64,000 bases of DNA from an uncultured Gammaproteobacteria bacterium (GCA_964538435.1 CAZIDX010000001.1:393-64392), one strand, 5' to 3'; shown: positions 6,838 to 33,765, numbered from the stretch's first letter. Numbers and translations: made by a program. Notes: generated by a model not told the origin, from the letters alone.

Positions 6838-6868
6838 CGCAGAGCTCGCCTGAGCCCTGCGTTTTCTA
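6838..6868 (+). terminator. Rho-independent terminator of the GC-rich operon
   Basis: CGCAGAG...CCCTGCG stem followed by TTTTCT, then the conserved TTTTCTAATTG linker. Confidence 0.6.
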
Positions 6869-6876
6869 ATTGAACA

Positions 6877-6922
6877 GGTGGATACCATTTAAGTGCCGAT
6901 CGGACCTTATATGGTATCCACC
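6877..6922. repeat. REP-like palindromic repeat, copy 1 (GGTGGATACCATTTAAG-TGCCGATCGGAC-CTTATATGGTATCCACC)
   Basis: 46-bp inverted repeat with a CCGATCGG core; near-identical copies at 31145-31188 and 33693-33735, with outer arms covarying (GGTGG/CCACC vs GGGG/CCCC). Confidence 0.65.
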
Positions 6923-6928
6923 GAGAAT

Positions 6929-7441
6929 CTATTTAATTGTATACAAATAGAGATCAAGTTGCCCCGCGGCTTTGCTTATCTCTTCAGCCTCCCATTCAGG
7001 GATCGGCCAGACATAGCTGATAACCCTAGTTCCAGGTTTGAGCTCTGAGCGAAGCTTTGACTCAATCTTTTCATATGTCTCAGGCATCAGAAACATGTAC
7101 ACCGCATCATATTCATTCAAGTTCTTACCAAACACATTCCCAAATCGATATCGAGCTCGAGAACGCGTTGCTGATGCTTGCAGGGCTGCAACAAGATATT
7201 GCAGTAGAGAAAGCTCAACGCCATGCACTGCGACTCCGGGATTCTTCTGAGCCAAATGTCGACATACACGCCCATTCCCACACCCAAGCTCAACGAACTT
7301 CTCACCATCCTTAAGCTTGAGTAATTTATGTATCCGATCAAGATCTTGCTTCCTGGTAGGCACCCAAGGCGCCCCAGAAGCCGCTGCATACGCAAGCGAG
7401 GCCAGGAGAACCAAGCCAATCCCAGCAAAAACATATAACAT
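6929..7441 (-). CDS. Class I SAM-dependent methyltransferase, small, with an N-terminal TM segment
   Basis: Motif I VELGCGNGRV; about 170 aa. Confidence 0.65.
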   Translation of the reverse strand: MLYVFAGIGLVLLASLAYAAASGAPWVPTRKQDLDRIHKLLKLKDGEKFVELGCGNGRVCRHLAQKNPGVAVHGVELSLLQYLVAALQASATRSRARYRFGNVFGKNLNEYDAVYMFLMPETYEKIESKLRSELKPGTRVISYVWPIPEWEAEEISKAAGQLDLYLYTIK

Positions 7442-7703
7442 ATGGATTGATTATAGCACTGAAACGAATCATCGCCACCTTACTCGACACAAACGTGAGG
7501 ATTTGGAAACGCTATCAAGGCCGCAGGGGACAATTTTTGTGAGAATCCCGCTTGCGGGATCGAACAAAGAATTCGTCCCTGAGGCTACTCTGACAAAACC
7601 CCCACCCGCAGCCAAAAAGAAGACACCCTCCGTTCCAGTCCCCAAGCAAGGGAAAGGGAAGGAGGGTGCTTCGTCGCGACGTTTCGTGCGTCGCGTCAGG
7701 GAG

Positions 7704-8480
7704 CTAGGCCTGTGCCGGCTCCTGGTTGTTCACCACGAGCTGCAGGCCGCTGCCGCGCAGCAGATCACTCATGCTGGCGCTGCCGCCGCTGTCCTGGTGA
7801 ACGACATCCTCACCATCGGCCAGGTCGGCATTGGTCAGGATCTCGCGCACGCGCATGTCGAGGTTGATGCCCTTGCCGCTGACCGGGTTCCAGTCCAGGC
7901 TGCGGGTCGCGAAGGTGCGGGACTCGCCGCCGAACATGAGCGGAGCCGGCCGCGAGTACATCATGCCAGCGGGATCCTTGAGCACGATGCGCTGCTTGGG
8001 CTTGGGATCACCTTCCTCGAGCGGGAAGACATCCAGGAAGAACATGTAGTTCTTCCAGACCTTGAAGTGGGGATCCTGGCGCGTGTCCGCGTCCTTGATG
8101 TGCACGGTGCGCACACCGACCTTGACCCGGCCAGCGACGATCAGGGCGTCATCGCCCTTGGGGCCGCGCAGGTGCACGCTGATGCCGCTGCAGCGGTCGC
8201 CCAGGCGCACGTGATGGTACTCGCCGATGGGGGAGTCGGTCACGGGCGTGTGCTCCGCACCCTTGGGGATCTCGATGATGCAGGGGCCCAGGTCCTCGGC
8301 GTAGAACAGTTCCTGGATCGTGGGGTCGTTGCCCTTGTGTCGGGGCGGCTTCTCGATGGTGGCGATGTGACCCACGCCGTCGGTCTCGACGTTCATCGCT
8401 CGCAGCTCGGCGAGGAAGTCCTCCCAGTGCGCAAGAACGTTCAGTCCTCCGATCGTTCGGACGGTCATGTCGGACATCAT
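7704..8480 (-). CDS. Hypothetical protein, GC-rich gene
   Basis: 258-aa ORF with ordinary amino-acid composition; the overlapping + ORF 7317-8726 looks like an antisense shadow. A TTGACA-N17-TATTTT promoter lies on the minus strand near 8560-8600. Confidence 0.55.
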   Translation of the reverse strand: MMSDMTVRTIGGLNVLAHWEDFLAELRAMNVETDGVGHIATIEKPPRHKGNDPTIQELFYAEDLGPCIIEIPKGAEHTPVTDSPIGEYHHVRLGDRCSGISVHLRGPKGDDALIVAGRVKVGVRTVHIKDADTRQDPHFKVWKNYMFFLDVFPLEEGDPKPKQRIVLKDPAGMMYSRPAPLMFGGESRTFATRSLDWNPVSGKGINLDMRVREILTNADLADGEDVVHQDSGGSASMSDLLRGSGLQLVVNNQEPAQA

Positions 8481-8664
8481 TCACTCCATTGGTTGACGCG
8501 GCCAAGTCGTGGCGGCGTACAGGATTTCCGCTTTAAAAACGGTTCTGACGCAGCGGTCAGACGACGAAAAATACCACAAAATGGTACTTTTGTCAACCTC
8601 TGGAGCCAAAAAACACACAAAAATGGATGCTTTTTATGGATTCGACCCTGGGGAAATCTCTTTG

Positions 8665-8692
8665 TTTACAAAAAAAATACCTTGTGTATAAT
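8665..8692 (+). promoter_or_regulatory. Sigma70-type promoter (TTTACA-N16-TGTGTATAAT, extended -10) for the 8734 gene
   Basis: Read directly from the sequence; a GGGGAAATC motif sits just upstream at 8650-8658. Confidence 0.55.
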
Positions 8693-8733
8693 CCGTTTCG
8701 AAGCATTCATTTCTATTAATCCTTAGGAGGAGT

Positions 8734-9177
8734 ATGGATATCCAAACACTTTTTAAACTCGAGATCGGTGAAACCGTTCGAGTCTCCAACGAGCCACTCA
8801 CGCTCATTGGACGATCTACAATCACATTTGATGGCGGTGACGAGCTTGTCTGGCTCTTTGATGAAGACGAGCGCATTCTCTCAGTCGCACCAGAGGAAGA
8901 AGAGCTTTTCTTGTTTGAAAAACTTGATGAAGAAATCGAGCCAGACGAAGAGGGGATTCTTTACCAAGGAAAAGAGTACGAATTCCACTACAAAGACACA
9001 GGTGTGGTGACAGAGGTAGAGGGCGACGTCATAACCGAGCCAGACGACACCTACTTGTACATGGACTACGAAGCAAAGGATGGGGGTGTGCTGCGCATTG
9101 TCAGCAACGAGAATACAGGTGAAGCAGGTGCCTATGTTGGCCGCACGGTTTCAGAAGATGATCTAAACGAGCTGTAG
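8734..9177 (+). CDS. Small acidic cytoplasmic protein, possibly DUF4178-like
   Basis: RBS AGGAGGAG; 147 aa; family assignment is from memory only. Confidence 0.45.
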   Translation: MDIQTLFKLEIGETVRVSNEPLTLIGRSTITFDGGDELVWLFDEDERILSVAPEEEELFLFEKLDEEIEPDEEGILYQGKEYEFHYKDTGVVTEVEGDVITEPDDTYLYMDYEAKDGGVLRIVSNENTGEAGAYVGRTVSEDDLNEL

Positions 9178-9202
9178 GTTTCAGACAAACGAAAATCTTG
9201 CT

Positions 9203-9236
9203 AAAATAGAGATGGCAAAATGCCGTCTCTATTTTG
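9203..9236 (+). terminator. Rho-independent terminator (13-bp stem AAATAGAGATGGC/GCCGTCTCTATTT + T-run)
   Basis: Near-perfect hairpin followed by TTTTG; the ORF-track start at 9212 lies inside this hairpin. Confidence 0.7.
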
Positions 9237-9244
9237 ATATTCTC

Positions 9245-10450
9245 ATGAAAAAAGCGATCTCATTCATCGTTCTGGGTGTGGTGGTTGTGCTTTCTGTCAC
9301 AGCAGCCACATATATCGTGCTCATGCAGCTGGATCCTGATCTTGAAGTACGTAAAATGATGATAGCAATGGCCAGCCTCGAGACAGTGAGGCAAGACTCA
9401 GGCTTTAGCTGGACGCGCGGAGAAGGCAGTGAGCGCATAAACACAACACTCTACACAACAGGCCAGATAAGCATTGATGATGAGGCTAATCTCCAGCACG
9501 CAACACAGTTTCGGGTTGTGCACATGGGGGCGGATAATTCGTACTCAGACCTCTCAGGCGAATTCCGAATGCTAGAGGATGCAAGCTACCTCACATACAC
9601 ACCTCCAGGCCCAAGCGTAGACGGCGTGTCGTTTGATCAAGAGCAAACCTGGATTGCATTCGCTCAAGATGAGCTGCTCTCCTGGGGGGCTGTGCTACCG
9701 GGTCTTGAGCTTCCAATCGCTTTGAGTGAACAGAAAATATCCTGGACCCCAGACGTATTCGCGCGCCTCCGTTACCTGCTTTCCTCAACAGATGTTTTCA
9801 TCGCCCAAGCAAGTGGACTCACACAGATCGTAGGGAATGCAAACACAAGAATAATTGATGCAACGTTTGACCCAGATGTTGTAGAAGCCTTCCTGCGTGA
9901 CATTGTGCGCGCAAAGCAAGGGCGAGACCCAACAGAAGACGAACGAGAGCTTGTGGCCAAGCAGGCCGAGCAGATTAAGCGATTAACATTCAGGTTCTGG
10001 ATCGGCACACAGGATCATTATCTTTATAAACTACAAGCCGCTGGCGCCTTCTCAGATCCAGAAACAAATGACCTAATCCCAGTTGACATCAAGGTAGAGT
10101 TTGAGGACTTCAACGAACCATTCGACATTGACGAGCCCAATGACCCACTCCTTTTTGAGCAAGTACTCAGGTCAGTGTTTGCTGACCTGCCAGATTCAGA
10201 AGCGCTCACACTGGGAGGGGTAAACAAGGTGCTAGTAACAGATGAAACAGCAAGGCTGCCAGTAGAGGAGGTGGAGGAATCAACCGACCAAGATGAGGAT
10301 GGGCTTAGCAATGTTCTTGAGGCGTTCTACGGCACCAATCCAAACGACCCTGACACAGATGGTGATGGGGTAACAGACGGCGACGAGGTGCGCAAAGGGC
10401 ATAATCCACGAGGAACCGGGTCATTATTCGGATTCGGGCTAGAGAGATAG
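9245..10450 (+). CDS. Membrane-anchored secreted protein with C-terminal acidic Ca-binding-like repeats (DxDxDGxxDxDE)
   Basis: N-terminal TM segment (ISFIVLGVVVVLSV); C-terminus has TDQDEDGLSN...NPNDPDTDGDGVTDGDE, resembling thrombospondin-type-3-like motifs. Start moved to ATG 9245, downstream of the terminator. Confidence 0.5.
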   Translation: MKKAISFIVLGVVVVLSVTAATYIVLMQLDPDLEVRKMMIAMASLETVRQDSGFSWTRGEGSERINTTLYTTGQISIDDEANLQHATQFRVVHMGADNSYSDLSGEFRMLEDASYLTYTPPGPSVDGVSFDQEQTWIAFAQDELLSWGAVLPGLELPIALSEQKISWTPDVFARLRYLLSSTDVFIAQASGLTQIVGNANTRIIDATFDPDVVEAFLRDIVRAKQGRDPTEDERELVAKQAEQIKRLTFRFWIGTQDHYLYKLQAAGAFSDPETNDLIPVDIKVEFEDFNEPFDIDEPNDPLLFEQVLRSVFADLPDSEALTLGGVNKVLVTDETARLPVEEVEESTDQDEDGLSNVLEAFYGTNPNDPDTDGDGVTDGDEVRKGHNPRGTGSLFGFGLER

Positions 10451-10451
10451 A

Positions 10452-12230
10452 ATGACAGCAAAAAAACGAAAACGAGCTTGGCGCCCATCGCGCAAATCAA
10501 ATCCAGACACCCGTCTGGAAGTTTTGCGCATTGGAGCGATCTTATTTGTTTCGGTGATTGTTCTCAAGCTGTTTATCCTCCAGGTGGTCCAGCATGATTT
10601 TTATGATGCGCTTGCAAGTGGGCAGCACGAACTCTTTGAGGAGCTGATTCCAGTCAGAGGTACAGTGTACGTGCATGATTACAAGGATGAAACATTGGTT
10701 CCCGTTGCAACCAATCAAAAACTAGCATTCATCTACGCAGACCCTCGGCTCGTGGAAGATCCAGACGGAACCGCAGAAGACTTGGGGGATATCTTTGATT
10801 GGGATGAAGAAAAAATTGAAGCGCTCGAAGCCAGACTTGAGCAAGAAGACGATCCATACGAGCCAGTCATGAGAAAAGTCGAAGAGGACATGCTTGACGA
10901 GGTGCTTGCGCTTGAGTTGCCAGGCATTTTCTATGTCAGAGAAGCTTCCAGGCTCTATCCAGAGGCTGAGATGAGCGGGCATGTGCTCGGGTTTGTAGGC
11001 TCAAACGAAGACGGTTCGCTCTCTGGAAAATACGGCATCGAAGGATATTTTAACGAGGAGCTCTCAGGTGAAGCAGGATATCTTCTCTCAGAACGAGACA
11101 TTGCAGGTAGGCTCATTGCTGTGGCAGATCGTGTGTATGAGCCAGCGCAAGATGGTGTTGATATCGTGCTAACACTCGATAGGACCGTGCAGTACAAGGC
11201 TTGCTCGCTCTTAAACGAGGCCGTGGAGAAGCATGGTGCTGATGGTGGAAGCGTGGTGATCATCGAGCCGTCAACGGGGCACATTCTTGGGATGTGTGGA
11301 GCTCCAGACTATGATCCAAACGCATACGGCCAAGTGGACAGCATTGATCAGTTTAACAACCCAGCCATTTTTAACGCCTACGAACCAGGTTCGATTTTCA
11401 AGCCTCTCACCATGGGGGCAGCACTTGATGTTGAGGCTGTAACTCCAACAACGCTGTACACAGATCTTGGATATGAAATGGTTGATGGTTGGGATTATCC
11501 AATTAGAAACGCAGAAGACAAGGTGTATGGCGAGGTGAATATGACTCAGGTTCTAGAAGACTCCGTTAACACAGGAATGATTTTTTCCATGCGCGAAACC
11601 GGCATGGATACCTTTGTGGAGTACGTAAAGACGTTTGGTTTTGGGGAGTCTACAGGCATCGAACTTGATACAGAGGCAATTGGAACCATCAGTTCTCTCG
11701 ACATTGGCGCAGAGATCTACGCCGCAACCGCAAGTTACGGACAGGGGATCACAGTCACACCACTCCAGATCGCCATGGCCTACGCAGCAATCGCAAATGG
11801 AGGCGTGCTCAAAAAACCGCTTATTGTTGATGAGGTGCACAATCCAGACGGAACCGTAGAAAAACGAACATCTCAAGACCTGGCGCAAGTCATTCAATCA
11901 TCAACCTCTCGCACGCTCGCTGCCATGCTTGTGTCTGTGATTGAACATGGTCATGGTTCTCGTGCTGGTGTTGAGGGGTATTACATTGCAGGAAAGACAG
12001 GAACCGCCCAGGTGGCTCGATCAGACGCGGTCGGTTACGACGAGGACAACACCATTGGTTCTTTTGCTGGCTTTGGGCCAGTTGAAGACCCTCGTTTTGC
12101 AATGGTGGTTCGTATTGATAATCCAAAAGACGTAGTCTGGGCAGAATCCACGGCCGCCCCGCTCTTTGGGGAGATTGCAGAGTTTCTGCTACAGTACTTT
12201 GAGATCCCTCCAGTTCGCACACTAGAATAA
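10452..12230 (+). CDS. ftsI: Penicillin-binding protein 2 / FtsI-type peptidoglycan transpeptidase
   Basis: N-terminal TM and dimerisation region; active-site motifs SIFKP (SxxK), SVNT (SxN), KTGTA (KTG). Confidence 0.85.
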   Translation: MTAKKRKRAWRPSRKSNPDTRLEVLRIGAILFVSVIVLKLFILQVVQHDFYDALASGQHELFEELIPVRGTVYVHDYKDETLVPVATNQKLAFIYADPRLVEDPDGTAEDLGDIFDWDEEKIEALEARLEQEDDPYEPVMRKVEEDMLDEVLALELPGIFYVREASRLYPEAEMSGHVLGFVGSNEDGSLSGKYGIEGYFNEELSGEAGYLLSERDIAGRLIAVADRVYEPAQDGVDIVLTLDRTVQYKACSLLNEAVEKHGADGGSVVIIEPSTGHILGMCGAPDYDPNAYGQVDSIDQFNNPAIFNAYEPGSIFKPLTMGAALDVEAVTPTTLYTDLGYEMVDGWDYPIRNAEDKVYGEVNMTQVLEDSVNTGMIFSMRETGMDTFVEYVKTFGFGESTGIELDTEAIGTISSLDIGAEIYAATASYGQGITVTPLQIAMAYAAIANGGVLKKPLIVDEVHNPDGTVEKRTSQDLAQVIQSSTSRTLAAMLVSVIEHGHGSRAGVEGYYIAGKTGTAQVARSDAVGYDEDNTIGSFAGFGPVEDPRFAMVVRIDNPKDVVWAESTAAPLFGEIAEFLLQYFEIPPVRTLE

Positions 12231-12240
12231 AACCGCTCAC

Positions 12241-12290
12241 CACGTCATCCTGAGCGCCTGCCTGCCGGTAGGCAGGAAGCGAAGGATCCC
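12241..12290. repeat. Solo copy of the GIY-YIG element terminal repeat (CACGTCATCCTGA-hairpin-GAAGGATCCC) in the murF leader
   Basis: Matches the left ends of the elements at 41448 and 45948, including a covarying internal hairpin (CCTGCC..GGCAGG vs CCCGCC..GGCGG). Confidence 0.55.
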
Positions 12291-12333
12291 ACTCTCAGCA
12301 AGAAACAAGTCAACGAGCAGTATCTAAACTCAC

Positions 12334-13629
12334 ATGAATATGAAAGCGTTTATCCAGGCACAACTTAAGAAAAAGGCACAAAAACTCATTGCAAAGCACA
12401 AGCCGATGGTGATTGGAGTGACAGGTTCTGTTGGAAAGACGTCTGCGCGTAATGTGATCGCTCAGGTTCTGGGAGAAAAGTATCGCGTGCGCACAACCAT
12501 TGACAACTACAACAACGAACTCGGTTTGCCGCTGACGATTCTTGGTGAGAAATCACCTGGACGCTCAGTGCTGGGTTGGCTCAGGGTGCTCACAAAAAAG
12601 ATTGAAGACGTGCCAGAAGTGTTTGTGCTCGAATACGCTGTAGATCATCCAGGCGATATGGCTTACCTGTGCGACATTGCTGAGCCTGACATTGCAGTAT
12701 TCACACGCATCTCTCCAGTGCACGCTGAGAACTTCAGGTCAGTGGAAGAGCTCATCGAAGAGAAAGCTGTCTTGCTCGAGCGAACAAAAGAGGGTGGAAT
12801 GGTTGTGCTCAACGCAGATGATCCACGCGTCCTTGGCGCAAGCAATCACGCAAACGCACCTGCGATTACGTATGGGTTTGCTCAGAACGCAGACGTACGC
12901 GCAACTGATTATGAGCTTGCCACGCGAGAAGACTTCTCTTTTGAGCCTGGCGAGACACTCTCCGAGGTTCGCTTCACCGCCGTCACTGAAAAAACACAGC
13001 TCCCAGTTCGCCTCATCAACCTACTCGGCAGGACCGCCGCCCACGCTGTGCTCCCAGCCATTACTATCGGATGGCACCTAGGGCTAGATCCAGACGAGAT
13101 CACAAAGGGGCTTGCAAAGTCAGAGCTCGAGCCTGGGCGCATGAACCCTGTTCCAGGAATCAAAGGATCACTCATCATTGACTCAAGCTACAATGCAGCA
13201 CCTGCTTCCATGGAGGCTGGGCTCAATGTCCTGCATGAGTTCAAGCCAGTGGAGATAGCAAGACGAATCGCTGTGCTTGGTGTGATGGGGGAGCTTGGTG
13301 CAGACTCAGAGCAAGAGCATAGAATGATCGGGCTCAAGTGCGCAGAGGTTGGTGTCGATGTGCTCGTGACTGTTGGAGAAAAAGCAAGAGACATCCGCTA
13401 CGGCGCCATCGAGGCAGGAATCCCAGAAGACAAATGCGAACACTTTGAACACGCAGTAGAAGCCGGTCGTTGGATGGATGCGCACATCAAAAAGGGTGAC
13501 ATCGTGCTAGTGAAAGGATCACAATCGTCTCGCATGGAAAAGGTGGTAAAAGACATCATGGCTGAGCCACTCAGAGCAAAGGAGCTCCTGGTCAGGCAAT
13601 ATGGGAAGTGGGTGGAGGATGAGGAGTAA
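12334..13629 (+). CDS. murF: UDP-N-acetylmuramoyl-tripeptide--D-alanyl-D-alanine ligase (Mur ligase family; MurF more likely than MurE)
   Basis: Mur ligase P-loop IGVTGSVGKTS; DSSYNAAPASMEAGL motif; position downstream of ftsI. Confidence 0.7.
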   Translation: MNMKAFIQAQLKKKAQKLIAKHKPMVIGVTGSVGKTSARNVIAQVLGEKYRVRTTIDNYNNELGLPLTILGEKSPGRSVLGWLRVLTKKIEDVPEVFVLEYAVDHPGDMAYLCDIAEPDIAVFTRISPVHAENFRSVEELIEEKAVLLERTKEGGMVVLNADDPRVLGASNHANAPAITYGFAQNADVRATDYELATREDFSFEPGETLSEVRFTAVTEKTQLPVRLINLLGRTAAHAVLPAITIGWHLGLDPDEITKGLAKSELEPGRMNPVPGIKGSLIIDSSYNAAPASMEAGLNVLHEFKPVEIARRIAVLGVMGELGADSEQEHRMIGLKCAEVGVDVLVTVGEKARDIRYGAIEAGIPEDKCEHFEHAVEAGRWMDAHIKKGDIVLVKGSQSSRMEKVVKDIMAEPLRAKELLVRQYGKWVEDEE

Positions 13630-13816
13630 CGTTCAAATAGAAGGATTAAAAAGAGTAGTAGGAGTATGAGGATTCGTATTTGCGATTCCTTCTAACCCTA
13701 CTACTCTTTCTATTTGCGAGTTACTCCTTCTAACCCTTCCTATTGACAAAACCCAAAAATCGTGTACGGTCCATCAGTTCAACCGAACAAAACTTTCCTC
13801 GCAGATTCGCTGCGAG

Positions 13817-14683
13817 ATGAATTCCTGTGTGGATGCACAGGTGGTCCCCGCCATCGGCGGGGGGAACGTGAGTGGCAGCACAAATCCTGTCACAGAAAGG
13901 ATCGGATGGATGTCCGACCGTATTCGCCTCAGAGGTCCTTCGCAGAAGTTCAAACCCACAGACGGTCCCAGCAAGATGGACCTGCTCCTCGGAATCGCGG
14001 AGCCGTACGTACACGGTCAGCTCCGGGTCGTGAGTGTCAAGCTCGAGGGCATCGTCGACGAGCTGAACAAGCGATCGCGCAAAGAGCGGTTCGTCGGCTG
14101 TGTAGTGTCCTATGCACCGCTCCGCCTCAAGGACGGCAGCTTCGACCCCGACTACTGCACATTCGTGCTACAGCGAATGGTGGGTACCGGAAGAGCTGGG
14201 GATCCCGAATACCTGATCGTTCGAAGTTACGACACAAACCACCGCCGGGGATTCGAGGCAGTTCTCAGGTTCAAGCAGCCTGGCACCAGTGGTGAGTACG
14301 CACGTCGTCGTTGGGGATATCACCCTCGCATCACCAAGGTGAGCGTGGACTCAGGGCTGAGTCCGTGGAACATCATGAACTGCCTGGGTAACCCACCCGT
14401 CTTGGAAGACAGGCTTCTCGAGTTGTACCTCTCGGCAATCGGGCTCTTCGGAAAGATCGGTCTTTTCGATCCGATCACGGGCACAAGTGTCAATACCGAG
14501 GAGTTCGTGCAGGGGGCAATCGTTCGTTGCGACCTCCATCGTATCGATCGAACCATGCGCATCCGCTACGAGTTCATCGAGTCCCATACCGGAATCGCCT
14601 TCCATGGCGAGTATAACACCAGGACCGGTGAGGCCTGGCTGCGACTCGGCCACGGCTGGGACCCGAAGGATCCCTACTGCTAG
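13817..14683 (+). CDS. Hypothetical protein (start codon uncertain)
   Basis: Long ORF with a coherent composition; no recognisable motifs. Alternative starts at 13910 or 13975. Confidence 0.4.
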   Translation: MNSCVDAQVVPAIGGGNVSGSTNPVTERIGWMSDRIRLRGPSQKFKPTDGPSKMDLLLGIAEPYVHGQLRVVSVKLEGIVDELNKRSRKERFVGCVVSYAPLRLKDGSFDPDYCTFVLQRMVGTGRAGDPEYLIVRSYDTNHRRGFEAVLRFKQPGTSGEYARRRWGYHPRITKVSVDSGLSPWNIMNCLGNPPVLEDRLLELYLSAIGLFGKIGLFDPITGTSVNTEEFVQGAIVRCDLHRIDRTMRIRYEFIESHTGIAFHGEYNTRTGEAWLRLGHGWDPKDPYC

Positions 14684-14684
14684 A

Positions 14685-14750
14685 CCAACGTCTGACTTCC
14701 AACGTCTGACTTCCAAAGTCTGACTTCCAACGTCTGACTTCCAACGTCAG
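14685..14750. repeat. Tandem repeat, 14-bp unit CCAACGTCTGACTT x about 4.7, immediately after a stop codon
   Basis: Units at 14685, 14699, 14713 (one variant base) and 14727, with a partial fifth. Nested GC-rich hairpins and a T-run follow to about 14815. Confidence 0.8.
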
Positions 14751-14985
14751 GCGTCCCCACGAGCCCCGCTCGTGAGACGAAACACTCCGTTTCGCTCGCG
14801 TGCGGGGTGTTTTGTTCAAGCTCAACATCTCAAGCTCAACATCGAACGTCCATAAAAGAAGTCAACCTAGTCATGTTATGTACATCGAACGTCCATTTGT
14901 TGATTTTGAGAAAAAACATTGACAAAACGTTTCAAATAAAGAAAACTTACGTTCTTGCAACCACAGCAAGAGAAAAGGTGGGATT

Positions 14986-15183
14986 GTGACGCACCGATAC
15001 AAGTTCGGATGGAGTCTTTTCGTGGTCTGTACCATTGGTCTGATCAACATGCTGCACTACGGGATCGATGGGAGGTTGTCGGTGTTGCTCGGCCTGCTCG
15101 CAGGGATCGCCTGCTACGCACTCCTGAGCGCCTACCAAGGTCTCACGCGAGGGTCTCAGAACACAACGGGTGCTCAGCAGTGA
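14986..15183 (+). CDS. Small hydrophobic membrane protein (GTG start)
   Basis: RBS AAGGTGG; about 65 aa with two predicted TM helices. Confidence 0.4.
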   Translation: MTHRYKFGWSLFVVCTIGLINMLHYGIDGRLSVLLGLLAGIACYALLSAYQGLTRGSQNTTGAQQ

Positions 15184-15389
15184 CCAGCGAGCACAGGCGA
15201 TGGTTCTGCATCATGATCTTCGTTGCCAACACGATCGTCTACGGGATCATGCTCCTATGCATCGGAGAGCTGAAGTACCTGTGGGTTGCCCCAATCGGTG
15301 GCTTCCTGGCAGCAGTGATCACGCATGCCAGCCTCGATGTGATCACGGTCCAAGAGACAAAACAAAACACCCAACATCGCAAGGTGTGA
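15180..15389 (+). CDS. Small hydrophobic membrane protein, paralog of the preceding gene (GTG start overlapping its stop)
   Basis: About 69 aa; similar VT..HR N-terminus and TM pattern to the upstream paralog. Confidence 0.4.
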   Translation: MTSEHRRWFCIMIFVANTIVYGIMLLCIGELKYLWVAPIGGFLAAVITHASLDVITVQETKQNTQHRKV

Positions 15390-18440: not shown

Positions 18441-18515
18441 GGCCCCATCGTCTAACGGTCAGGACGCCAGGTTCTCATCCTGGAAATCGGGGTTCGATTC
18501 CCCGTGGGGTCACCA
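18441..18515 (+). tRNA. tRNA-Glu (anticodon CUC), CCA encoded
   Basis: Cloverleaf can be drawn by hand: acceptor GGCCCCA/TGGGGTC, D-stem GTCT/GGAC, anticodon stem CCAGG/CCTGG with loop TTCTCAT, T-arm CGGGG-TTCGATT-CCCCG. Confidence 0.85.
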
Positions 18516-20859: not shown

Positions 20860-21254
20860 AGAAAAATATAAGCAAACAAAAAAACGGCCTGCGGCCGCGT
20901 TCTTCCTACGCAATTCGTAAATTGAGTCTAACGTCGTTTTCACGTTTTGTCAAAAAACGAATCCACACCCTCATCTCCAAACTATTGACAAATCAATACG
21001 CCCACCTTCAGGTCGAGGATCAAGACGAACTCGACTAACCAGAGCACGACACTCTGACCCCCCCAAAAGGGGGTTTTCATTTTCAAACACGTAAAAACGT
21101 AACAAAACGTAACCCGGTTACGGAGTTTTAGCTAAGGTAAGTACTTTTGTCGAGGTCTTAGGCACATATGCGTCGATCGTCGCATATGTGCCTAAACAAA
21201 AAGCTTCGAGCTGAAGTCCGAGGGCCTTCGGTGGAGTATTAGAAAAGAGCAGCT

Positions 21255-23344: not shown

Positions 23345-23373
23345 TTGACAAAATGGCGAAAATCGAGTATTCT
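23345..23373 (+). promoter_or_regulatory. Sigma70-type promoter TTGACA-N17-TATTCT preceding a leader of about 235 nt
   Basis: Read directly from the sequence; a terminator hairpin for the upstream gene lies at about 23297-23323. Confidence 0.5.
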
Positions 23374-23607
23374 CCAATCTTCTTTACCCAATACCAAGGC
23401 AACTATCGCAGCCAAAAATTGCATAGAAACACTCCATGTTCCCTCATGAACAACAACAGCTCAGAGGTTTTTGCAGGGAGTTTTTGTTTTGTGGTCGCTC
23501 GTGCTCAATGGAGGCTTTGCACGGGTTGTCACCGAACAGGTATTACGCCTGAAACGAACAACCTCCCATGCGCTTTTTGCGCTTCCTGTTCATCACAAGG
23601 AGACTTC

Positions 23608-26430
<2,823 letters not shown>

Positions 26431-26442
26431 CCCCAACGCTAG

Positions 26443-26482
26443 GGGTTCACGGAACCGAGTCTCTCTGAGGCTCGGTTCTTTC
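26443..26482 (+). terminator. Rho-independent terminator (GAACCGAG/CTCGGTTC + T-run)
   Basis: Hairpin followed by TTTCGTTTCC after the repeat-protein gene. Confidence 0.55.
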
Positions 26483-26528
26483 GTTTCCAAAAACTTCCAA
26501 TCGTTGTTATGATGAATCAAATAACAAT

Positions 26529-27851: not shown

Positions 27852-27852
27852 T

Positions 27853-28752
27853 ATGAAAAGGATCAAACACATTCTAGACACATTCATGCTTGGAAACATC
27901 AAGCAGGTTAAGGACGTTCCATCAAGCGGGAACGTTCTTTTTGATATTGAATCTGACCAAGGGCGCTACTTCCTAAGATTCAACCCCTCAGGTGGACCTC
28001 GTCACAGAACAGAAGAGGAGGTGCACGCTGAGATCGAGGTGCTTGATTTGCTCAAGGAAAAGGGAATTCCAGTTGAGTCTGCTGTTCAAAACAATGACAA
28101 CCAACGTGTGTTCTCGCATGAAAACGCTTTTGGCTATCTGAGAAATCACATTGAGGGTGAATACAAAAATGATCCAAGCGTTGAGGATGTAAAAAAAGTA
28201 GGGGAGCTGCTTGGAAAGATTCATGCAATCACGCAGGACTATCAAACAAAGCACGAACGCAAACATCGCTGGGATCTAGAAAATGCCAAGCAGTTTCTCA
28301 AAGAAAAGGCCGAGATCATGCCGCTTGGCGTAAAAGCTCGAATTGAAAAAGAGTTTGAGAATATGGAGTTCGGAAGCAATCTGCCAACCGGCATGCTTCA
28401 CGAAGACCTTGGAAAGCGACATGTGCTCTGGAAGGATGATGAGATCGTCGGTGTGATCGACTTTGACCGCATGTACCACGGTCCACTCATCCTAGATGTG
28501 GGGCAAGCGATTCGCGGATGGTGCTTTTACGGAGATTGGGAGGAATTCAGCGAAGAAAGATTTGAGGCATTCCTGAGCGGATATGAGTCCGTGCGCAAAC
28601 TCACATCAGAAGAAAAAGACGTGCTCATGGACGCACTGCGTTTTGCCCTGCTCGAGCGCGCCATGTCATTCATCGTCCGCTTCGCAGAAATGACAGAAGA
28701 CCCAGAAGACAAAAAATTCGCCTACGACACTATGAACTTGGTAGGGAAATAG
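27853..28752 (+). CDS. Phosphotransferase of the APH / homoserine-kinase-like (protein-kinase-like) family
   Basis: Catalytic-loop-like HEDLGKRHVLW and IDFD motif; translationally coupled to the upstream gene (TGATATG). Confidence 0.6.
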   Translation: MKRIKHILDTFMLGNIKQVKDVPSSGNVLFDIESDQGRYFLRFNPSGGPRHRTEEEVHAEIEVLDLLKEKGIPVESAVQNNDNQRVFSHENAFGYLRNHIEGEYKNDPSVEDVKKVGELLGKIHAITQDYQTKHERKHRWDLENAKQFLKEKAEIMPLGVKARIEKEFENMEFGSNLPTGMLHEDLGKRHVLWKDDEIVGVIDFDRMYHGPLILDVGQAIRGWCFYGDWEEFSEERFEAFLSGYESVRKLTSEEKDVLMDALRFALLERAMSFIVRFAEMTEDPEDKKFAYDTMNLVGK

Positions 28753-28769
28753 AAAACACACCCAATCCC

Positions 28770-29354
28770 TCAGGTGTGCGCAAGTGTTTCCGGAAAATAT
28801 TCCAGAAAGGACTCGTAGAACACGGGCCCTTTTTTTGTATACGTAGCTTCCACGATCACAACTCGAGTCCGTGCATGCCCAAGCTGTGTGTAGTCACCTT
28901 CCTCCAAGTGTCTCTGGCCCCAGGCCCTCCGGATCACCCTGTAGACCCCAGGAACGTTTTTCAAGTCCCAAGACTTCCGTGTTCCTCGAAAGCCTCGGTC
29001 AGGCTGCCAGTCATACACACCACGGCTCATCCAGTGCAGACCACGGGACACCCAGAACCGCAAGTGTGTAAGAGCAGGTGCGTGGACGTAGAAGATGAGG
29101 TTGTATTCATCGAGTTGCATGAGCGCCTTGCTGCCGAATGCGTGGATGTCCTCGATGAGCCAGATCGTATCCACATCAGCCGGATCGATGTATCTGGGAT
29201 CGGCTAGGTAAGTGTCAGCAGGATTCCTCTCCCTTGAGTACCCATCCACGTCCACTTGCACAACCTTGTGCCGCTGCGCATGGAGTGTCTTGGCAAGGTG
29301 TCGTCGAAACGAACTCTTCCCAACATTCCCCAGTCCAGTGATCAGAACGAGCAT
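28770..29354 (-). CDS. P-loop NTPase / small kinase-like protein
   Basis: Walker A GLGNVGKSS at the N-terminus; about 194 aa. Confidence 0.55.
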   Translation of the reverse strand: MLVLITGLGNVGKSSFRRHLAKTLHAQRHKVVQVDVDGYSRERNPADTYLADPRYIDPADVDTIWLIEDIHAFGSKALMQLDEYNLIFYVHAPALTHLRFWVSRGLHWMSRGVYDWQPDRGFRGTRKSWDLKNVPGVYRVIRRAWGQRHLEEGDYTQLGHARTRVVIVEATYTKKGPVFYESFLEYFPETLAHT

Positions 29355-29843
29355 TAGCGCCTCCAGTCTTGATTCAGGTATTGACCTTAAGTCTCTTGCA
29401 TAAAAAAGTCAAAAGGAAAACTCAGCCGAGTGGCTGAGTCCGTGACGTTACGCTCCAAGGGTAAGACCCCCGGCAGCGAAATCTGAGGCAATCACTTCAA
29501 TCAGGTTGAGTACTGATAGAAGTGACGTCTCAAGCTGGCCCGCAAGGAGCGGGAAGAAGAGTTGAAGGACCAGCAATGTCATCACGAGCATAAAGAGGCT
29601 TCGCATATGGATCGTTGGTTAGATCCAGGGGCCGCAGAGCTGACTAAGCCCTGAGTCGGATGACGTTTGCATGGTCACCTCATCCCTTGGGGTAATCCGC
29701 CGAAACTCAGCACATCGCTCCAAGAGACAAGAGACATTTGTGGGACATACGATAATAGCAAGAAAACCGTCTTTTGTCAACCCAAAAGATGTCCATGAAT
29801 AACAAAAATGCTCAATCGAAAAACCCCACCGGAGTGAGGTCTG

Positions 29844-30037
29844 CTAGCCAACGCCGTCTTGCGTCAGGCCAGTGTCGTAGGAGAGGTCTTCGAGCTCGCT
29901 GGCAGACTCCTGCGCTTGATGCCAGTGTTTGAAATGAGTATGCATAGAGCGAGCGAAGTACCAGGGGAGTAGCGCGACCACTGCCGCTGCCACCAGGAAA
30001 TCCCAGTTCTTGCGAACCCAGGCGAGTTTAGTGTTCA
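29844..30037 (-). CDS. Small membrane protein (64 aa) overlapping the 3' end of the pilin gene
   Basis: Internal ATG at 30037 gives MNTKLAWVRKNWDFLVAAAVVALLPWYF...; a terminator hairpin lies just downstream near 29813-29843. Confidence 0.35.
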
Positions 30038-30426
30038 TGCGCAAGCACCCTGATTGTCGCCGAACAATACTTCTCGCCATTGAGTCTGTGGCAACACACC
30101 AGGAACGGCTGCTCCTTCTCACGCACATCGAATGCGCGCACGGTGTAGCCTGCCTGCTCACAGCGCTTGCATCCAAGCTGCTTTGCCTCCTCAGTGGTCC
30201 AGGTGTGAGCAACCCAAGCGTCGAAGTAGCCGACTGCCTCCACCGCTTCGATGGCATCCTGCTCCGTGATCTTTCTCGTGTTCACAACTGTCTGCTCACC
30301 ATCCTCAAGCCCCATGGCACGCTCGCGCATGGCAATGAAGCTCGGGATCGCAATAGCAGCAATGATGCCGATCATGGCGATGACGACCATCAGCTCGATC
30401 AGGGTGAATGCGCGCTCGCTACTCAT
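30028..30426 (-). CDS. Type IV pilin-like / pseudopilin protein (prepilin-type N-terminal domain)
   Basis: MSSERA|FTLIELMVVIAMIGIIAAIAIP class-III signal; C-terminal cysteine pairs including FLVCC. Confidence 0.7.
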   Translation of the reverse strand: MSSERAFTLIELMVVIAMIGIIAAIAIPSFIAMRERAMGLEDGEQTVVNTRKITEQDAIEAVEAVGYFDAWVAHTWTTEEAKQLGCKRCEQAGYTVRAFDVREKEQPFLVCCHRLNGEKYCSATIRVLAHEH

Positions 30427-30581
30427 CGGCTGACCTCGGAGGTCTCCTCGACCTGAGCAGGCTCATGCGCGCTGTTCCACTTCTCATTGTATTGATGTGC
30501 GACGTACATGACGATTGCAATCGCGATGATGAACAGCACGATCATGATCTCACCAACACCGAATCCTCTCAGGAATCTCAT
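30423..30581 (-). CDS. Micro-ORF (52 aa) hydrophobic peptide between the two pilin genes, not in the ORF track
   Basis: RBS GGAGAAAGGAGAG; MRFLRGFGVGEIMIVLFIIAIAIVMYVAHQY...; its TGA overlaps the ATG of the pilin gene. Confidence 0.4.
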   Translation of the reverse strand: MRFLRGFGVGEIMIVLFIIAIAIVMYVAHQYNEKWNSAHEPAQVEETSEVSR

Positions 30582-30698
30582 TGAAGGCTCTCCTTTCTCC
30601 AGACAACGACATTACGCAGAAGATGCAGTTTTGTCAAGAATCAGAAAACCCCACCAGCGGCGGGGTCGTTGTCGAATATCTCGGCTTTCTCTACTCGC

Positions 30699-31106
30699 TC
30701 ATCTCTTGAAAAGGATGATGCAAGCCTTGTGTGTGCCAGTGCCTCGGCAGCACACTAGGAAGTTGTGCTCCTCCTCGTGAGAGTCCGAGGCTGTGACTTC
30801 GTACGCACGCAGGTCACGACACGCACAATCACTGTTCCTGAGGTCATGACCCCAGTCCTTGGTTATGATCGGGGAGAGATACCCCGCGTTCGTCATGGTC
30901 ACGAGTGCATCACCAGCCGTGGGATAGCGATCTTCCGTGCTCAGTCCATGATTGACATTGTCGTTCTTGGGTCTCTCTTGCATCGCAATGAAGTTCGGGA
31001 TCACGATCGCTGCCAGCAGGCCCACGATTGCACACACGACCATCAACTCGATCAGCGTCAAGCCGCTACGGCTCTTGTTCATGATTCCCTCCAGGGTCAG
31101 AAGCAA
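30699..31106 (-). CDS. Type IV pilin-like protein (prepilin peptidase site KSRSG|LTLIELMVV)
   Basis: Canonical G|LTLIELMVV prepilin N-terminus; C-terminal Cys pairs and FLVCC shared with the paralog. Confidence 0.7.
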   Translation of the reverse strand: MLLTLEGIMNKSRSGLTLIELMVVCAIVGLLAAIVIPNFIAMQERPKNDNVNHGLSTEDRYPTAGDALVTMTNAGYLSPIITKDWGHDLRNSDCACRDLRAYEVTASDSHEEEHNFLVCCRGTGTHKACIILFKR

Positions 31107-31112
31107 GAGACA

Positions 31113-31141
31113 ATAATAGTCAAAAAACCATCATTTGTCAA
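31113..31141 (-). promoter_or_regulatory. Consensus sigma70 promoter TTGACA-N17-TATTAT driving the pilin cluster
   Basis: Minus-strand reading: ggTTGACAaatgatggttttttgacTATTATtgtc. Confidence 0.65.
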
Positions 31142-31218
31142 CCAGGGGATACCATATAAGTGCCGATCGGACCTTATATGGTATCCCCAAAGAGTATTCA
31201 GCCCAATTAGAAAACCCG
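31116..31218. repeat. 103-bp direct repeat, copy 1 (promoter + 44-bp palindrome + CAATTAGAAAACCC)
   Basis: Near-identical to 33663-33765; contains the palindrome 31145-31188 (GGGGATACCATATAAG-TGCCGATCGGAC-CTTATATGGTATCCCC). Confidence 0.8.
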
Positions 31219-31300
31219 TCTACACTCAACTGAGTATTGACGGGTCGTGACCGTTAATGCACTTCAGACACCGGACCAGCTGGTCCGCAGCTCAAGTACT

Positions 31301-31585
31301 CTAACGCTCTTGTCGTTCGTCCAGGAGCTGTTGCTGCTCCTTCATGCGGTCGTTGAGCTCCTCGAGCTCTTCGAGCACAGCCGGTCCGTTGGCGAACCAG
31401 CGCACGAGCTGCAGGCGCATCTCCGTGCTGCAGTGGCGCAGCAGGTACTCGGCAACAGCCATGGCGATGCCGCGCTTGATCAGCTCGCGGAAGATCAGCA
31501 GGACCGCGATGATGCCGATCAGGCTGATGACCTCGCTGAGGATGCTGATGATCTGAGCGGTTCCGATGAGTCCTTCTTCCATCAC
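31301..31585 (-). CDS. Small membrane protein (94 aa) downstream of the SPFH gene
   Basis: Hydrophobic core IISILSEVISLIGIIAVLLIF; a rho-independent terminator follows on the minus strand at 31206-31247. Confidence 0.45.
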   Translation of the reverse strand: MMEEGLIGTAQIISILSEVISLIGIIAVLLIFRELIKRGIAMAVAEYLLRHCSTEMRLQLVRWFANGPAVLEELEELNDRMKEQQQLLDERQER

Positions 31586-32805
31586 CGACCTCCTTCTTCG
31601 ATGCTCATGTCCAGACCCAGGTCACGGGCGGTCTGCACCGTGAGGAGCTGGATCATGTCCGTGGCCGCGGAGCCAGACACGGTGGGGTCACCACCCATCA
31701 TGACTTCCGGCACCCAGCGCTGCTTGCCGATCTCGGCAGCGTACAGACCGTTGACCTGGACCCACGCTGCGAGCTTCTGCTCGAGCGCGCCGTCGGCCTT
31801 CATGGTCAGACGCTTGCGCTCGGCATCGCCTTCACCGCGCAAGATCTGCTCGGCCTTGTAGAACTCGGCTGCTTCCATCTCGAGCTGCGCGACTTCCTTC
31901 TTCTGCTCGGCCTCGGTGACAGCCTTGGCCTTGAGGACCTCCTGCTGCCACTTGGCACGGGCGGCCTCGGCCTCACCTTGCTTGGCTACGGTCTTGGCCT
32001 GCTGGTCGGCCTTGAGCGCATCCGCGATCGCGGACTGGACTTCCATGGTCGCGTCCTGCTGACGCTGGATCTGCTCCTCGACCTTGGGGTCGTAGTCGAT
32101 GCTGTTGACCGTGAAGTTGAAGGCGCGGATCTGGAACTCGGTCAAGGGAGAGTCTTCCTGGCGCATGTAGCCGCCACTCTCGTTCTCCACGAGTTCCACG
32201 AGGTTGATCACTCGTTCTTCTCCGGTGAGCGAATCCGTCTCCTTCACGCTTCGCGTGCGGGTGCGGTACACACCGTTGCTGACCTGATCACCGACGATCT
32301 GGATCAGCTCGGTGCGTCGGTCCGCGTAGCTCTCCTTGGAGCTCATGAGCGGGCCAGACATGAAGACCGCCTTGTTCACCACCTGTCCGAGCAGGTCTCG
32401 CTCGATCGCGTGCTGCGAACCGTACTTGGTGTGCAGCTTGCGCAGAGCTTCCTCGTTGAGCGGAAGCTCGAAGCGGAGCGAACCTGAGATAGTGGCAGTA
32501 CCACCATCGTTGAAGCGAACAGGGATCGACTGATCCGTGCCGTCGCCAGTCTCAGGGTCCTTGGTGAACCAGTACTGCGAGGACTTCAGGTAGGTCTCGG
32601 TGCCACCCCAACGGGTGAAGTAGAGACCAGGCTCGGTCCAGAAGTGCAGCTCGCCATCGAACGGGTCCTGTTCGATCACGATCTCGTCTGCACCGACGCG
32701 TTCCCACGCCGTGAAGATCGAGATGGTGCCTCCCAGGATCGCCAGTGCGGTGAGGATTCCCACCACAGCCTTGACGACGGAGCCAATCGGGTTTCTGCGT
32801 GCCAT
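31582..32805 (-). CDS. SPFH/band-7 (flotillin/YqiK-like) membrane protein
   Basis: N-terminal TM helix, SPFH core, long Ala/Glu/Lys-rich coiled-coil (flotillin-like) tail; GC-rich codon usage. Confidence 0.75.
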   Translation of the reverse strand: MARRNPIGSVVKAVVGILTALAILGGTISIFTAWERVGADEIVIEQDPFDGELHFWTEPGLYFTRWGGTETYLKSSQYWFTKDPETGDGTDQSIPVRFNDGGTATISGSLRFELPLNEEALRKLHTKYGSQHAIERDLLGQVVNKAVFMSGPLMSSKESYADRRTELIQIVGDQVSNGVYRTRTRSVKETDSLTGEERVINLVELVENESGGYMRQEDSPLTEFQIRAFNFTVNSIDYDPKVEEQIQRQQDATMEVQSAIADALKADQQAKTVAKQGEAEAARAKWQQEVLKAKAVTEAEQKKEVAQLEMEAAEFYKAEQILRGEGDAERKRLTMKADGALEQKLAAWVQVNGLYAAEIGKQRWVPEVMMGGDPTVSGSAATDMIQLLTVQTARDLGLDMSIEEGGR

Positions 32806-32826
32806 CCTTTCTCCCTATGGAAAGGG

Positions 32827-33171
32827 TTAGTGGTCTGTTGACCGGGGTTGCTGCTTGCGGGAACGACTCCCACGAGCAGAAGTTCCAGGAACCCTGCTGC
32901 GCGCACGGTGCGCACGAGCCTGTTCCTGATGGATGTCATCGAGGAGTTCCTCGATCTCGGCTTCCAAGCGCGCGACCTCAGCTTCAGTATGAGCATCAGC
33001 CAGGTCCAGCCTCATCTGCTCGAGACGTTCCTGCGGGGTCAGGGGCTTGGCAGCCCTACGTCGAAGGATCGGAAAGATCCGTTCGTTCCGAAACACGGGG
33101 AGCGTGATCTGTGTCACGACCCCCACCACGAGTAGAACAAATGCCGCGAAAAGCAGGAATTTGATCAGCAT
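32827..33171 (-). CDS. Membrane-anchored coiled-coil protein (109 aa), first gene of the SPFH module
   Basis: RBS GGAGG before ATG 33171; MLIKFLLFAAFVLLVVGVV TM helix followed by a charged helical tail. Confidence 0.5.
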   Translation of the reverse strand: MLIKFLLFAAFVLLVVGVVTQITLPVFRNERIFPILRRRAAKPLTPQERLEQMRLDLADAHTEAEVARLEAEIEELLDDIHQEQARAHRARSRVPGTSARGSRSRKQQPRSTDH

Positions 33172-33344
33172 CGTAGCCTCCTGGGCGAGGGGACACAACC
33201 GAAAAACCTGAGGTTCTGAAGGTTTTCGGAAGTGTCGAACTTAGTACTTTAAAAGAAGTTTGTCAAGCCAATTTGACGACCCGCAATCATTGGGGGTAGA
33301 GTTCAATTAGTTAAGAGGGAAGTCATTTCATAGAAAGGTAGGTT

Positions 33345-33574
33345 ATGACTGACCAGAAGGAGTACCTTTCAGTTTCTGAGTTTCAAGCTAGAATAAAAAC
33401 CTACATCGATGAAAGGGGGGGCTAAGCGTAGAACAGGTCGCTGACATTTGCCGAGTTCATGTAGGAACTGCAAACAGGTGGTACAGGGGCGTGACAGCAC
33501 CCATGCCACTATCCAGGGCAATCGCCGTGGACCACGTTGAACATTACCTGGAGAGACGAACTTCTGTCGGCTGA
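33345..33574 (+). pseudogene. XRE-family HTH transcriptional regulator interrupted by a frameshift in a G7 homopolymer (33415-33421)
   Basis: RBS AAAGGTAGG; frame 1 gives MTDQKEYLSVSEFQARIKTYIDERGG-stop; the +1 frame continues LSVEQVADICRVHVGTANRWYRGVTAPMPLSRAIAV... (HTH). An eighth G would restore a protein of about 77 aa. Confidence 0.5.
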
Positions 33575-33662
33575 CAGAAGTTACAAATCGGCTTTGCAAC
33601 AAGTCGGTTTTCTTTTTGAAAAGCCAAATAGAAAACCGGTCGTCAGAAGCAAGTGGTGGGGA

Positions 33663-33765
33663 ATAGTCAAAAAACCATCATTTGTCAACCAAGGGATACC
33701 ATATAAGGGCCGATCGGACCTTATATGGTATCCCCAAAGAGTATTCAGCCCAATTAGAAAACCCG
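33663..33765. repeat. 103-bp direct repeat, copy 2 (promoter-like TTGACA + palindrome 33693-33735 + CAATTAGAAAACCC)
   Basis: Same orientation as copy 1; the two copies bracket the SPFH module and the HTH pseudogene. Confidence 0.8.

Follow-up and report, generated by a model that had tools for sequence, protein, structure and literature searches.

A palindromic repeat at terminator junctions of a predicted Uhrbacteria chromosome, consistent with a low-copy, REP/MITE-like insertion element

The 64,000-nucleotide stretch analysed here (GCA_964538435.1, CAZIDX010000001.1:393-64392, called the window throughout) carries three copies of a near-palindromic repeat, each set directly after an intrinsic transcription terminator. 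In our judgement the repeat is probably, though far from securely, a lineage-restricted, low-copy, non-autonomous insertion element of 56-61 bp, akin to the repetitive extragenic palindromic (REP) sequences and miniature inverted-repeat transposable elements (MITEs). The judgement turns on presence and absence. Different terminator junctions are occupied in the window and in a sister genome, and the alternative state is clean and functional-looking; because it is present or absent at terminator-promoter junctions, the element behaves as a mobile repeat and not as a regulator site or a marker of foreign modules. It stands in both orientations relative to the neighbouring terminator, occupies one site that has no promoter and is found once as a decayed copy. 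Other small inserts with inverted ends also separate the window from the sister, so that such elements are active in the lineage. A preliminary description of this DNA offered three identities, namely a REP-like repeat or bacterial interspersed mosaic element (BIME), an operator for a dimeric regulator and a recombination site. The first is the best fit of the three, the repeat being an extragenic palindromic insert that is polymorphic at three junctions.

By its genes (dnaB, recR, recQ, glyA, folD, murE/F-like genes, PBP2 and hrcA-grpE-dnaK-dnaJ) the window is a segment of a bacterial chromosome, and homologues of its CPA2 antiporter and PBP2 carry the names Candidatus Uhrbacteria or Patescibacteria; judged from sequence, the host is a member of Candidatus Uhrbacteria, in the candidate phyla radiation (CPR). 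The nearest accessible genome, the sister (GCA_900089805.1, contig FLOH01000142.1; loci L015 and L017), was compared over 43 kb. It is collinear with window positions 763-47957, its orthologous proteins being 91-94% identical and its DNA ~70-88%. Outgroup loci were L024 (antiporter 72% identical) and L025 (PBP2 75%), and L019-L023 are loci from other Uhrbacteria. A profile built from the three window copies was run with nhmmer over the window and 25 comparison loci, and ~65 window open reading frames (ORFs) were scanned with Pfam; what is said below about copy number refers to the 64-kb window and the 43 kb of the sister. With Rfam 15 at gathering thresholds, the sole match in the window is tRNA-Glu (18441-18512), and the element has none. 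The three copies are as follows.

6873..6928, plus strand: copy 1, consisting of AACA, a 46-bp near-palindrome (6877-6922) and GAGAAT; hairpin -14.4 kcal/mol, z = -6.8 (DNA).
31143..31203, plus strand: copy 2, consisting of CA, a 44-bp near-palindrome (31145-31188) and then AAAGAGTATTCAGCC; hairpin -16.2 kcal/mol, z = -6.7.
33690..33750, plus strand: copy 3, a duplicate of copy 2 within the repeat unit R3 (see below); hairpin -18.2 kcal/mol, z = -7.2.

These copies, which the preliminary description had located correctly, are genuine and far above chance. A 40-nt consensus of the palindrome matches 6880-6919, 31147-31186 and 33694-33733 with 0-1 mismatch each, and none of 100 dinucleotide-preserving shuffles gave a match. 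Copies 2 and 3 were also found in independent Logan assemblies of run SRR8146440 (in L014 and L011, respectively), whose contigs break within the repeat, as a true repeat would predict. The palindrome is not perfect, as had been claimed: 20/23, 20/22 and 20/21 positions pair in copies 1, 2 and 3 (87-95%), leaving one to three mismatched pairs per copy, among them a G.A mismatch at pair 5 that every copy retains on the same strand. Likewise, the covariation noticed in the outer arms is real but confined to a single pair, pair 21, where a compensatory change (T:A in copy 1, G:C in copies 2 and 3) keeps the symmetry. The core is a 42-46-bp zero-loop near-palindrome, with two arms of ~21 bp (arm sequence GGGGATACCATATAAG; arm starts GGGGATACC and GGTGGATACC, ~21 nt) inverted around CCGATCGG and a short asymmetric flank; terminal inverted repeats are thus present. 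The arms abut without a spacer, and each holds only a 10-nt pseudo-dyad (CCATATAAGG) and no stem-loop. By direct reading of copies 2 and 3, three dyad boxes, CCATATAAGG, CCGATCGG and CCTTATATGG, follow each other at a spacing of exactly 10 bp. The best-conserved portion between window and sister is the core TAAG-nn-CCGATCG-nnn-CTTA, and the flanks are TGTCAACCA / AAAGAGT and AATTGAACA / GAGAATC, with no GTTRRRY. A HIP1-like iterated palindrome was considered for the centre CCGATCGG but rejected, since the window shows no excess of CGATCG or of any other 6-nt palindrome.

All window copies and the sister's copy are intergenic. The genes on either side of copy 1 converge, the ABC/AAA operon (ending at 6809) with its terminator preceding it and a minus-strand methyltransferase gene (6929-7441) following; its palindrome ends 6 nt from the methyltransferase stop codon (6929-6931), and there is no promoter there. 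Copies 2 and 3 lie on an axis of minus-strand transcription, where each separates a terminator tail from a promoter of the sigma-70 type. At copy 2 these are the tail at 31204-31214 (minus strand) and the -35 box of a strong promoter (TTGACA-17-TATTAT, 31141-31113), orthologous to L015 8560-8606, that drives a type-IV-pilin-like gene (30699-31082). The preliminary description put copy 1 on the plus strand and copies 2 and 3 on the minus strand, which is right for the terminators but not for the element: the nhmmer profile scores 62-77 bits on the plus strand and 38-45 on the minus strand at every copy, so the element is plus oriented in all three, and hence copy 1 is inverted relative to its terminator when compared with copies 2 and 3. 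The gap of about 15 bp between linker and palindrome, given earlier for every copy, is correct for copies 2 and 3 (15 nt) but is 4 nt at copy 1.

The insertion polymorphism is seen at three orthologous junctions between the window and GCA_900089805.1, and at one of them the outgroup bears out that the empty state is the ancestral one. At site 1 the window has the terminator tail (6862-6872), 56 nt (AACA, palindrome, GAGAAT) and then the stop codon; in the sister (L017 ~6422-6439) the terminator is followed by TTTTCAATTTG, with the methyltransferase stop codon within 4 nt, and the window surplus is ~52-56 bp. At site 2 a 61-bp insert (GGCTGAATACTCTTT, palindrome and TG on the minus strand) separates the tail from the -35 box in the window, and in the sister (L015 8600-8617, read from 8617) TTTTCTTATTG abuts the GTTGACA of the orthologous pilin promoter with no insert. 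Site 3 shows the converse arrangement, the window being the empty genome.

30632..30648, minus strand: site 3, empty window junction (read from 30648 to 30632), in which the tail TTTTCTGATTC runs straight into the -35 box TTGACA.

In the sister this junction holds 56 surplus bp (L015 8067-8122) between the tail and the -35 box of the next promoter of the pilin cluster. The insert contains CTTAAGGGCCGATCGTGCCTTAAG / GAACCACTTAAGGGCCGATCGTGCCTTAAGCGACC; it keeps the family centre and left arm but has lost the outer-arm symmetry, is recovered by nhmmer at L015 8077-8102 (E = 0.008) and folds with z = -0.7, as against -6.7 to -7.2 in the window. The outgroup L024 is empty here as well (~731-744, TTTTCTGATTGACA). 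Since site 3 is empty in both window and outgroup, the sister copy is a derived insertion. The size and internal asymmetry of the element are the same at independent sites. Restriction to this lineage also speaks for an insertion: there is no family member in the outgroup loci L024 and L025 or in L019-L023, and the nhmmer profile recovered no further copies in the window and 25 loci beyond those known and the decayed copy of the sister.

Copies 2 and 3 cannot be counted separately. Both belong to a direct repeat with 98% identity across 104 nt, which reaches 123/124 nt (31096-31218 and 33642-33765) when an 8-nt divergent patch, covering the -10 box and start site, is allowed. The two copies thus share one duplication and represent one event.

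31096..31218, minus strand: repeat unit R2, 123 nt, consisting of CGGG, tail TTTTCTAATTG, element, promoter (-35 TTGACA at 31141-31136, 17-nt spacer, -10 TATTAT) and the first ~12 transcribed nt, CTTGCTTCTGAC.
33642..33765, minus strand: repeat unit R3, 124 nt, a duplicate of R2 placed after the terminator of a 76-aa gene; the divergent patch makes its -10 box TATTCC.
31219..33641, minus strand: lineage-specific 2.4-kb SPFH insertion, absent from the sister and from outgroup locus L024.

Each palindrome had been described as joined to its terminator by a conserved linker, TTTTCTAATTG. The sequence occurs four times in the window (6862, 31214, 33761 and 60582) against 0.02 expected; nevertheless, it is not tied to the palindrome. 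Ten hairpin terminators of the window end in TTTTC[TG]nAT[TA], at sites that include 17552, 18177, 21246, 30648, 44441 and 62330 on the minus strand and 6862 on the plus strand, and six of the ten have no GGATACC-family palindrome. TTTTC[TG]nAT[TA] is the organism's generic terminator tail, and since it stands at unoccupied junctions too, TTTTCTAATTG is not part of the repeat family. At several junctions the tail leads directly into the GTTGACA of the next promoter, and similar tails are seen in sister L015 and outgroup L024; the T-tract at such fused junctions may double as an UP-like element. The terminator at copy 1 and a further tail with a palindrome beside it are the following.

6833..6872, plus strand: intrinsic terminator hairpin of the ABC/AAA operon and tail TTTTCTAATTG.
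60538..60582, minus strand: site 4, a generic tail followed by an unrelated 30-36-bp zero-loop palindrome (~60538-60573) with TTCGTACGTACGAA.

The palindrome at site 4 is real, and had been recognised near 60541-60580 as different from the others. Its 14-bp palindromic motif TTCGTACGTACGAA has two exact copies 76 bp apart, 60473-60486 and 60549-60562, both in the 207-bp spacer after the terminator of an inositol-monophosphatase-like gene and one of them inside a 30-bp perfect palindrome with A/T-rich arms. The motif is absent from all comparison loci. The two copies may form a paired operator or belong to some other element; the candidate downstream ORFs are 59484-60410 (plus) and 59925-60416 (minus).

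Several results weigh against an insertion element. A scan with the pattern ATACCATNTAAG-N6-20-CTTANATGGTAT, which demands an exact match to both 12-nt arm cores, covered 185,579 species genomes, 241 million metagenome records and 2.9 million viral contigs, none of which include the source genome itself, and brought up no family member; the matches, five among the genome contigs, five among the metagenome contigs and none among the viral contigs, are all unrelated A/T-rich hairpins from Clostridia, Saccharibacteria and others. Hence the case for mobility rests on three indels between two genomes. With two independent insertions and one duplication per 64 kb, and one decayed copy per 43 kb of the sister, the observed copy number is far below that of classical REPs. 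At site 3 alone does the outgroup rule out the precise deletion of an ancestral palindrome. Comparison of filled and empty states at the three junctions reveals no target-site duplication beyond 2 ambiguous nt (CA), and apart from the terminator tail the targets have no consistent sequence. Moreover, Pfam found no transposase, Y1_Tnp or REP-associated tyrosine transposase (RAYT) among the ~65 window ORFs, and no parent insertion sequence with matching inverted repeats is present in the window or the comparison loci.

If the repeat is an insertion element nonetheless, its movement would depend on a gene elsewhere in the genome, whose product would act in trans and recognise either the inverted arms or their hairpin in single-stranded DNA. 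A single-strand mechanism like that of IS200/IS605 or the RAYTs would be weakly favoured over a cut-and-paste DDE transposase, since there is no target-site duplication and every copy lies beside a hairpin-forming terminator. Placement at the 3' edge of the tail may reflect targeting, or may equally reflect survival, this being the sole position in such compact junctions at which an insert would break neither terminator nor promoter. The effects on the host are probably small: the A/T-rich tail would be shifted 61 bp from the -35 box, and a hairpin of ~20 bp would be added to read-through transcripts and to the 3' untranslated region (UTR) of the methyltransferase mRNA. In addition, the element would supply portable homology for recombination.

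Known small elements offer partial likenesses. The Correia elements of Neisseria are bacterial MITEs of 100-155 bp that have internal sequence and duplicate a TA target. Like them, the element here is small, has terminal inverted repeats, is intergenic beside promoters and terminators and could alter transcription or act as portable homology; unlike them, its arms meet with no internal sequence, its flank is an asymmetric 6-15 nt and there is no visible target duplication. Members of IS200/IS605 end in two different subterminal hairpins and insert with fixed polarity 3' of a tetra- or pentanucleotide. Their derivatives, the palindrome-associated transposable elements (PATEs), resemble the present element in the absence of a target-site duplication, in hairpin-forming DNA and in a fixed position beside a defined sequence; however, the element occurs in both orientations relative to the tail, and there is no TnpA in the window. 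PATEs and IS200/IS605 have been related to the REPs (PMC3337134), and the hairpin-forming REP doublets (REPINs) are believed to travel in hairpin form with the help of RAYTs (PMC3337134). With the REPs and REPINs of Enterobacteria and Pseudomonas (PMC3337134, PMC3116915) the element shares a short extragenic non-coding palindrome, a long single-stranded-DNA hairpin, a position after genes or terminators, no visible target-site duplication, restriction to a lineage and polymorphism between relatives. It differs in being one continuous zero-loop 44-bp palindrome, where a REPIN has two stem-loops with a spacer, in having no GTAG-type conserved head and no RAYT gene in the window, and in numbering ~1 copy per 20-30 kb of readable sequence, where REPs number hundreds per genome. 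The niche itself, directly downstream of an intrinsic terminator hairpin and T-run, is that of the group IIC introns (PMC1702495), but at only 56-61 nt the element has neither ribozyme domains nor a reverse transcriptase ORF.

A more ambitious version of the idea is that these copies belong to an undescribed family of hairpin elements of CPR bacteria (Uhrbacteria) that homes to the 3' edges of terminator tails by means of a single-strand, HUH-like or other enzyme, with the copies and the stereotyped tail-promoter junctions then serving as homology for the insertion of whole operons, as with the SPFH unit. We regard this as doubtful.

That the palindrome is instead an operator or activator site, bound by a dimeric or tetrameric regulator of the pilin-like and SPFH promoters, we consider unlikely. 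At copies 2 and 3 a gap of 3-4 bp separates the palindrome from a strong -35 box downstream of it, the palindrome spanning approximately -39 to -82, the sister's relative is also just upstream of a TTGACA box in the pilin cluster, and both the conservation of the core between the two genomes and the exact 10-bp spacing of the dyad boxes would suit a binding site. However, copies 2 and 3 count only once, and copy 1, between convergent genes, has no promoter. Moreover, the orthologous pilin promoter of the sister uses the same -35/-10 region without the site, the window orthologue of the sister's own occupied promoter is empty, and the sister copy is without outer arms. At 44 bp the palindrome is long for a single operator, and there is no candidate regulator gene nearby, the sole regulator found being HrcA. 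It has its own site, a canonical CIRCE (controlling inverted repeat of chaperone expression) that lies upstream of hrcA (38180-38210) and is shared with L015 and L024.

The third identity, a site-specific recombination (attachment) site that integrates operon-sized cassettes such as SPFH, strikes us as very unlikely, although part of what suggested it is sound. Copies 2 and 3 do form direct repeats around a true lineage-specific insertion, a 2.4-kb gain when synteny with the relatives is compared. The insertion comprises a ~380-nt non-coding leader, a promoter (-35 at 33266-33261, -10 at 33243-33238), a 123-aa ORF, an SPFH/Band_7 gene (31582-32805, Pfam), a 94-aa ORF and a terminator stem; the sister lacks both the DNA between the repeats and one repeat copy (L015 8608/8638 corresponding to window 31144/33795). 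Since the unit is missing from sister and outgroup alike, it is a gain in the window lineage flanked by duplicated native DNA, and the occurrence of SPFH homologues (75-76% identical) in varied, unrelated contexts in other Uhrbacteria indicates that the module moves over evolutionary time. But the duplication of 123/124 bp exceeds the palindrome by 15-30 nt on the tail side and by ~50 nt on the promoter side, so nothing singles out the palindrome as the crossover site. Homologous (Campbell-type) integration or segmental duplication would, on the sequence, explain the bracketing of SPFH at least as well as palindrome-specific recombination. SPFH loci elsewhere are palindrome-free, and the notion that the palindrome travels with the module was rejected because the homologous loci L020 and L023 carry none. 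Copy 1 is not at a module border, for both of its flanking genes are conserved, palindrome-free, in the sister. The Pfam scans found no recombinase or integrase gene in the window. Integron attC sites and the Vibrio cholerae repeats (VCRs) are imperfect palindromic repeats with R''/R' cores that stand at the 3' ends of gene units. The present palindromes are likewise imperfect and placed at the 3' ends of gene units, and as direct repeats they bracket an inserted gene module; in contrast to attC and VCR, they have no R''/R' cores (the signature RYYYAAC ... GTTRRRY is absent) and no extrahelical bases, the window has no integrase, and the module-bracketing repeat includes a complete promoter and terminator tail. 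The SPFH leader (33270-33641, minus strand) between R3 and the SPFH promoter starts with a tail-like GGTTTTCTATTTGG, contains an A/T-rich hairpin at 33605-33638 and has neither an Rfam match nor a convincing ORF; possibly it is left over from the donor locus.

Just as unlikely, finally, is a structural element selected by the host, which might insulate transcription behind weak terminators, stabilise mRNA or serve as a terminator, whether back-up or bidirectional. In its favour, the palindrome always directly follows an intrinsic terminator and forms a very stable DNA hairpin (-14 to -18 kcal/mol, z ~-7); at copy 1 no other structure would precede it in the 3' region of the convergent methyltransferase mRNA, and REP elements have been co-opted for comparable roles (PMC3337134). 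Against it, some means of copying would still be required to place the same sequence at unrelated sites, neither orientation of the hairpin has a U-tract behind it, sister and outgroup handle the same junctions without it, and of the ten terminators with this tail six are free of GGATACC-family palindromes.

The preliminary description also held that the palindrome marks the borders of GC-rich modules, possibly acquired ones, and this does not stand. The 6.8-kb operon that ends at copy 1 is ~78% identical in the sister and present in outgroup L025, palindrome-free in both and equally GC-rich (0.59 against 0.51 for the surroundings in the sister; 0.62 against 0.52 in the outgroup); as judged by this comparison, the operon is ancestral. 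SPFH genes in other Uhrbacteria have a GC content of 0.50-0.51 against 0.42, which is 8-10 GC points above their surroundings, and since they are GC-rich elsewhere, high GC is no sign of acquisition. A foreign origin of the GC-rich modules was accordingly rejected on the GC excess in sister, outgroup and other Uhrbacteria. A separate local GC peak at 24-26 kb is accounted for by the gene at 23353-26430, whose 1025-aa product contains 10 putative metal-binding repeats of the Cys/Asp-rich MopE type (PF11617, E = 8e-90); the peak is compositional, not a sign of foreign DNA.

Other small features of the window and the sister were recorded. At 41333-41866, between dnaK and a NUDIX gene, the window has an insertion of ~430 bp relative to the sister (L015 16133-16242) and outgroup L024. 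It carries an ORF for a 95-aa GIY-YIG nuclease (41509-41796; PF01541, E = 3.5e-17) and is flanked by inverted repeats (left, CACCACACCACGTCATCCTGA...GGATCCCCC; right, GGGGATCCC...TCGGGATGACGGTGGTGG), and looks like a small mobile GIY-YIG cassette. Conversely, the sister has ~190 surplus bp upstream of the antiporter gene (L015 9769-9999, corresponding to window 35050-35091). This stretch has a hairpin inside and ends like terminal inverted repeats (GTTGTCATCTCGA...TCGAGATGACAAC), and makes a second type of small insertion by which the two genomes differ. At 21158-21195 there is a 38-bp zero-loop palindrome, TTAGGCACATATGCGTCGATCGTCGCATATGTGCCTAA, with a CGATCG centre and 19-nt arms with one mismatch (hairpin -16.7 kcal/mol, z = -7.2), ~40 nt after the tail TTTTCTAATAC, with a GNAT gene on one side and the recQ promoter on the other. 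It was rejected as a family member (its arms match at ~10/19 by hand alignment, and nhmmer did not recover it), and could represent a separate kind of palindromic element that shares the niche. Another 38-bp zero-loop palindrome, TGCTGACATTTTCTCACCATGGTGAAGAAATGTCAGCA, lies at 43327-43364, just upstream of and over the dnaJ start, and is separate from the CIRCE site. Five tandem copies of a 14-nt unit (CCAACGTCTGACTT) occupy 14685-14756, just after an ORF ending at 14683.

As an element type the repeat is already known from REPs and MITEs; its main interest lies in the CPR setting and in the clean anatomy of its junctions. The genomes of CPR bacteria (Patescibacteria) are tiny and tightly packed, and a search of the literature on small repeat elements or MITEs in these bacteria found nothing relevant. 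It is in this setting that small elements appear to have been gained, with palindromic inserts at the one tolerant position of a fused terminator-promoter junction and the resulting repeats of ~120 bp flanking an operon-sized gain. A caution follows for the annotation of such genomes, namely that the elevated GC of neighbouring operons and a shared TTTTCTAATTG are not evidence of foreign modules. Should the family prove numerous genome-wide, it would provide a strain-typing marker for these uncultured organisms and a route to the enzyme that mobilises it.

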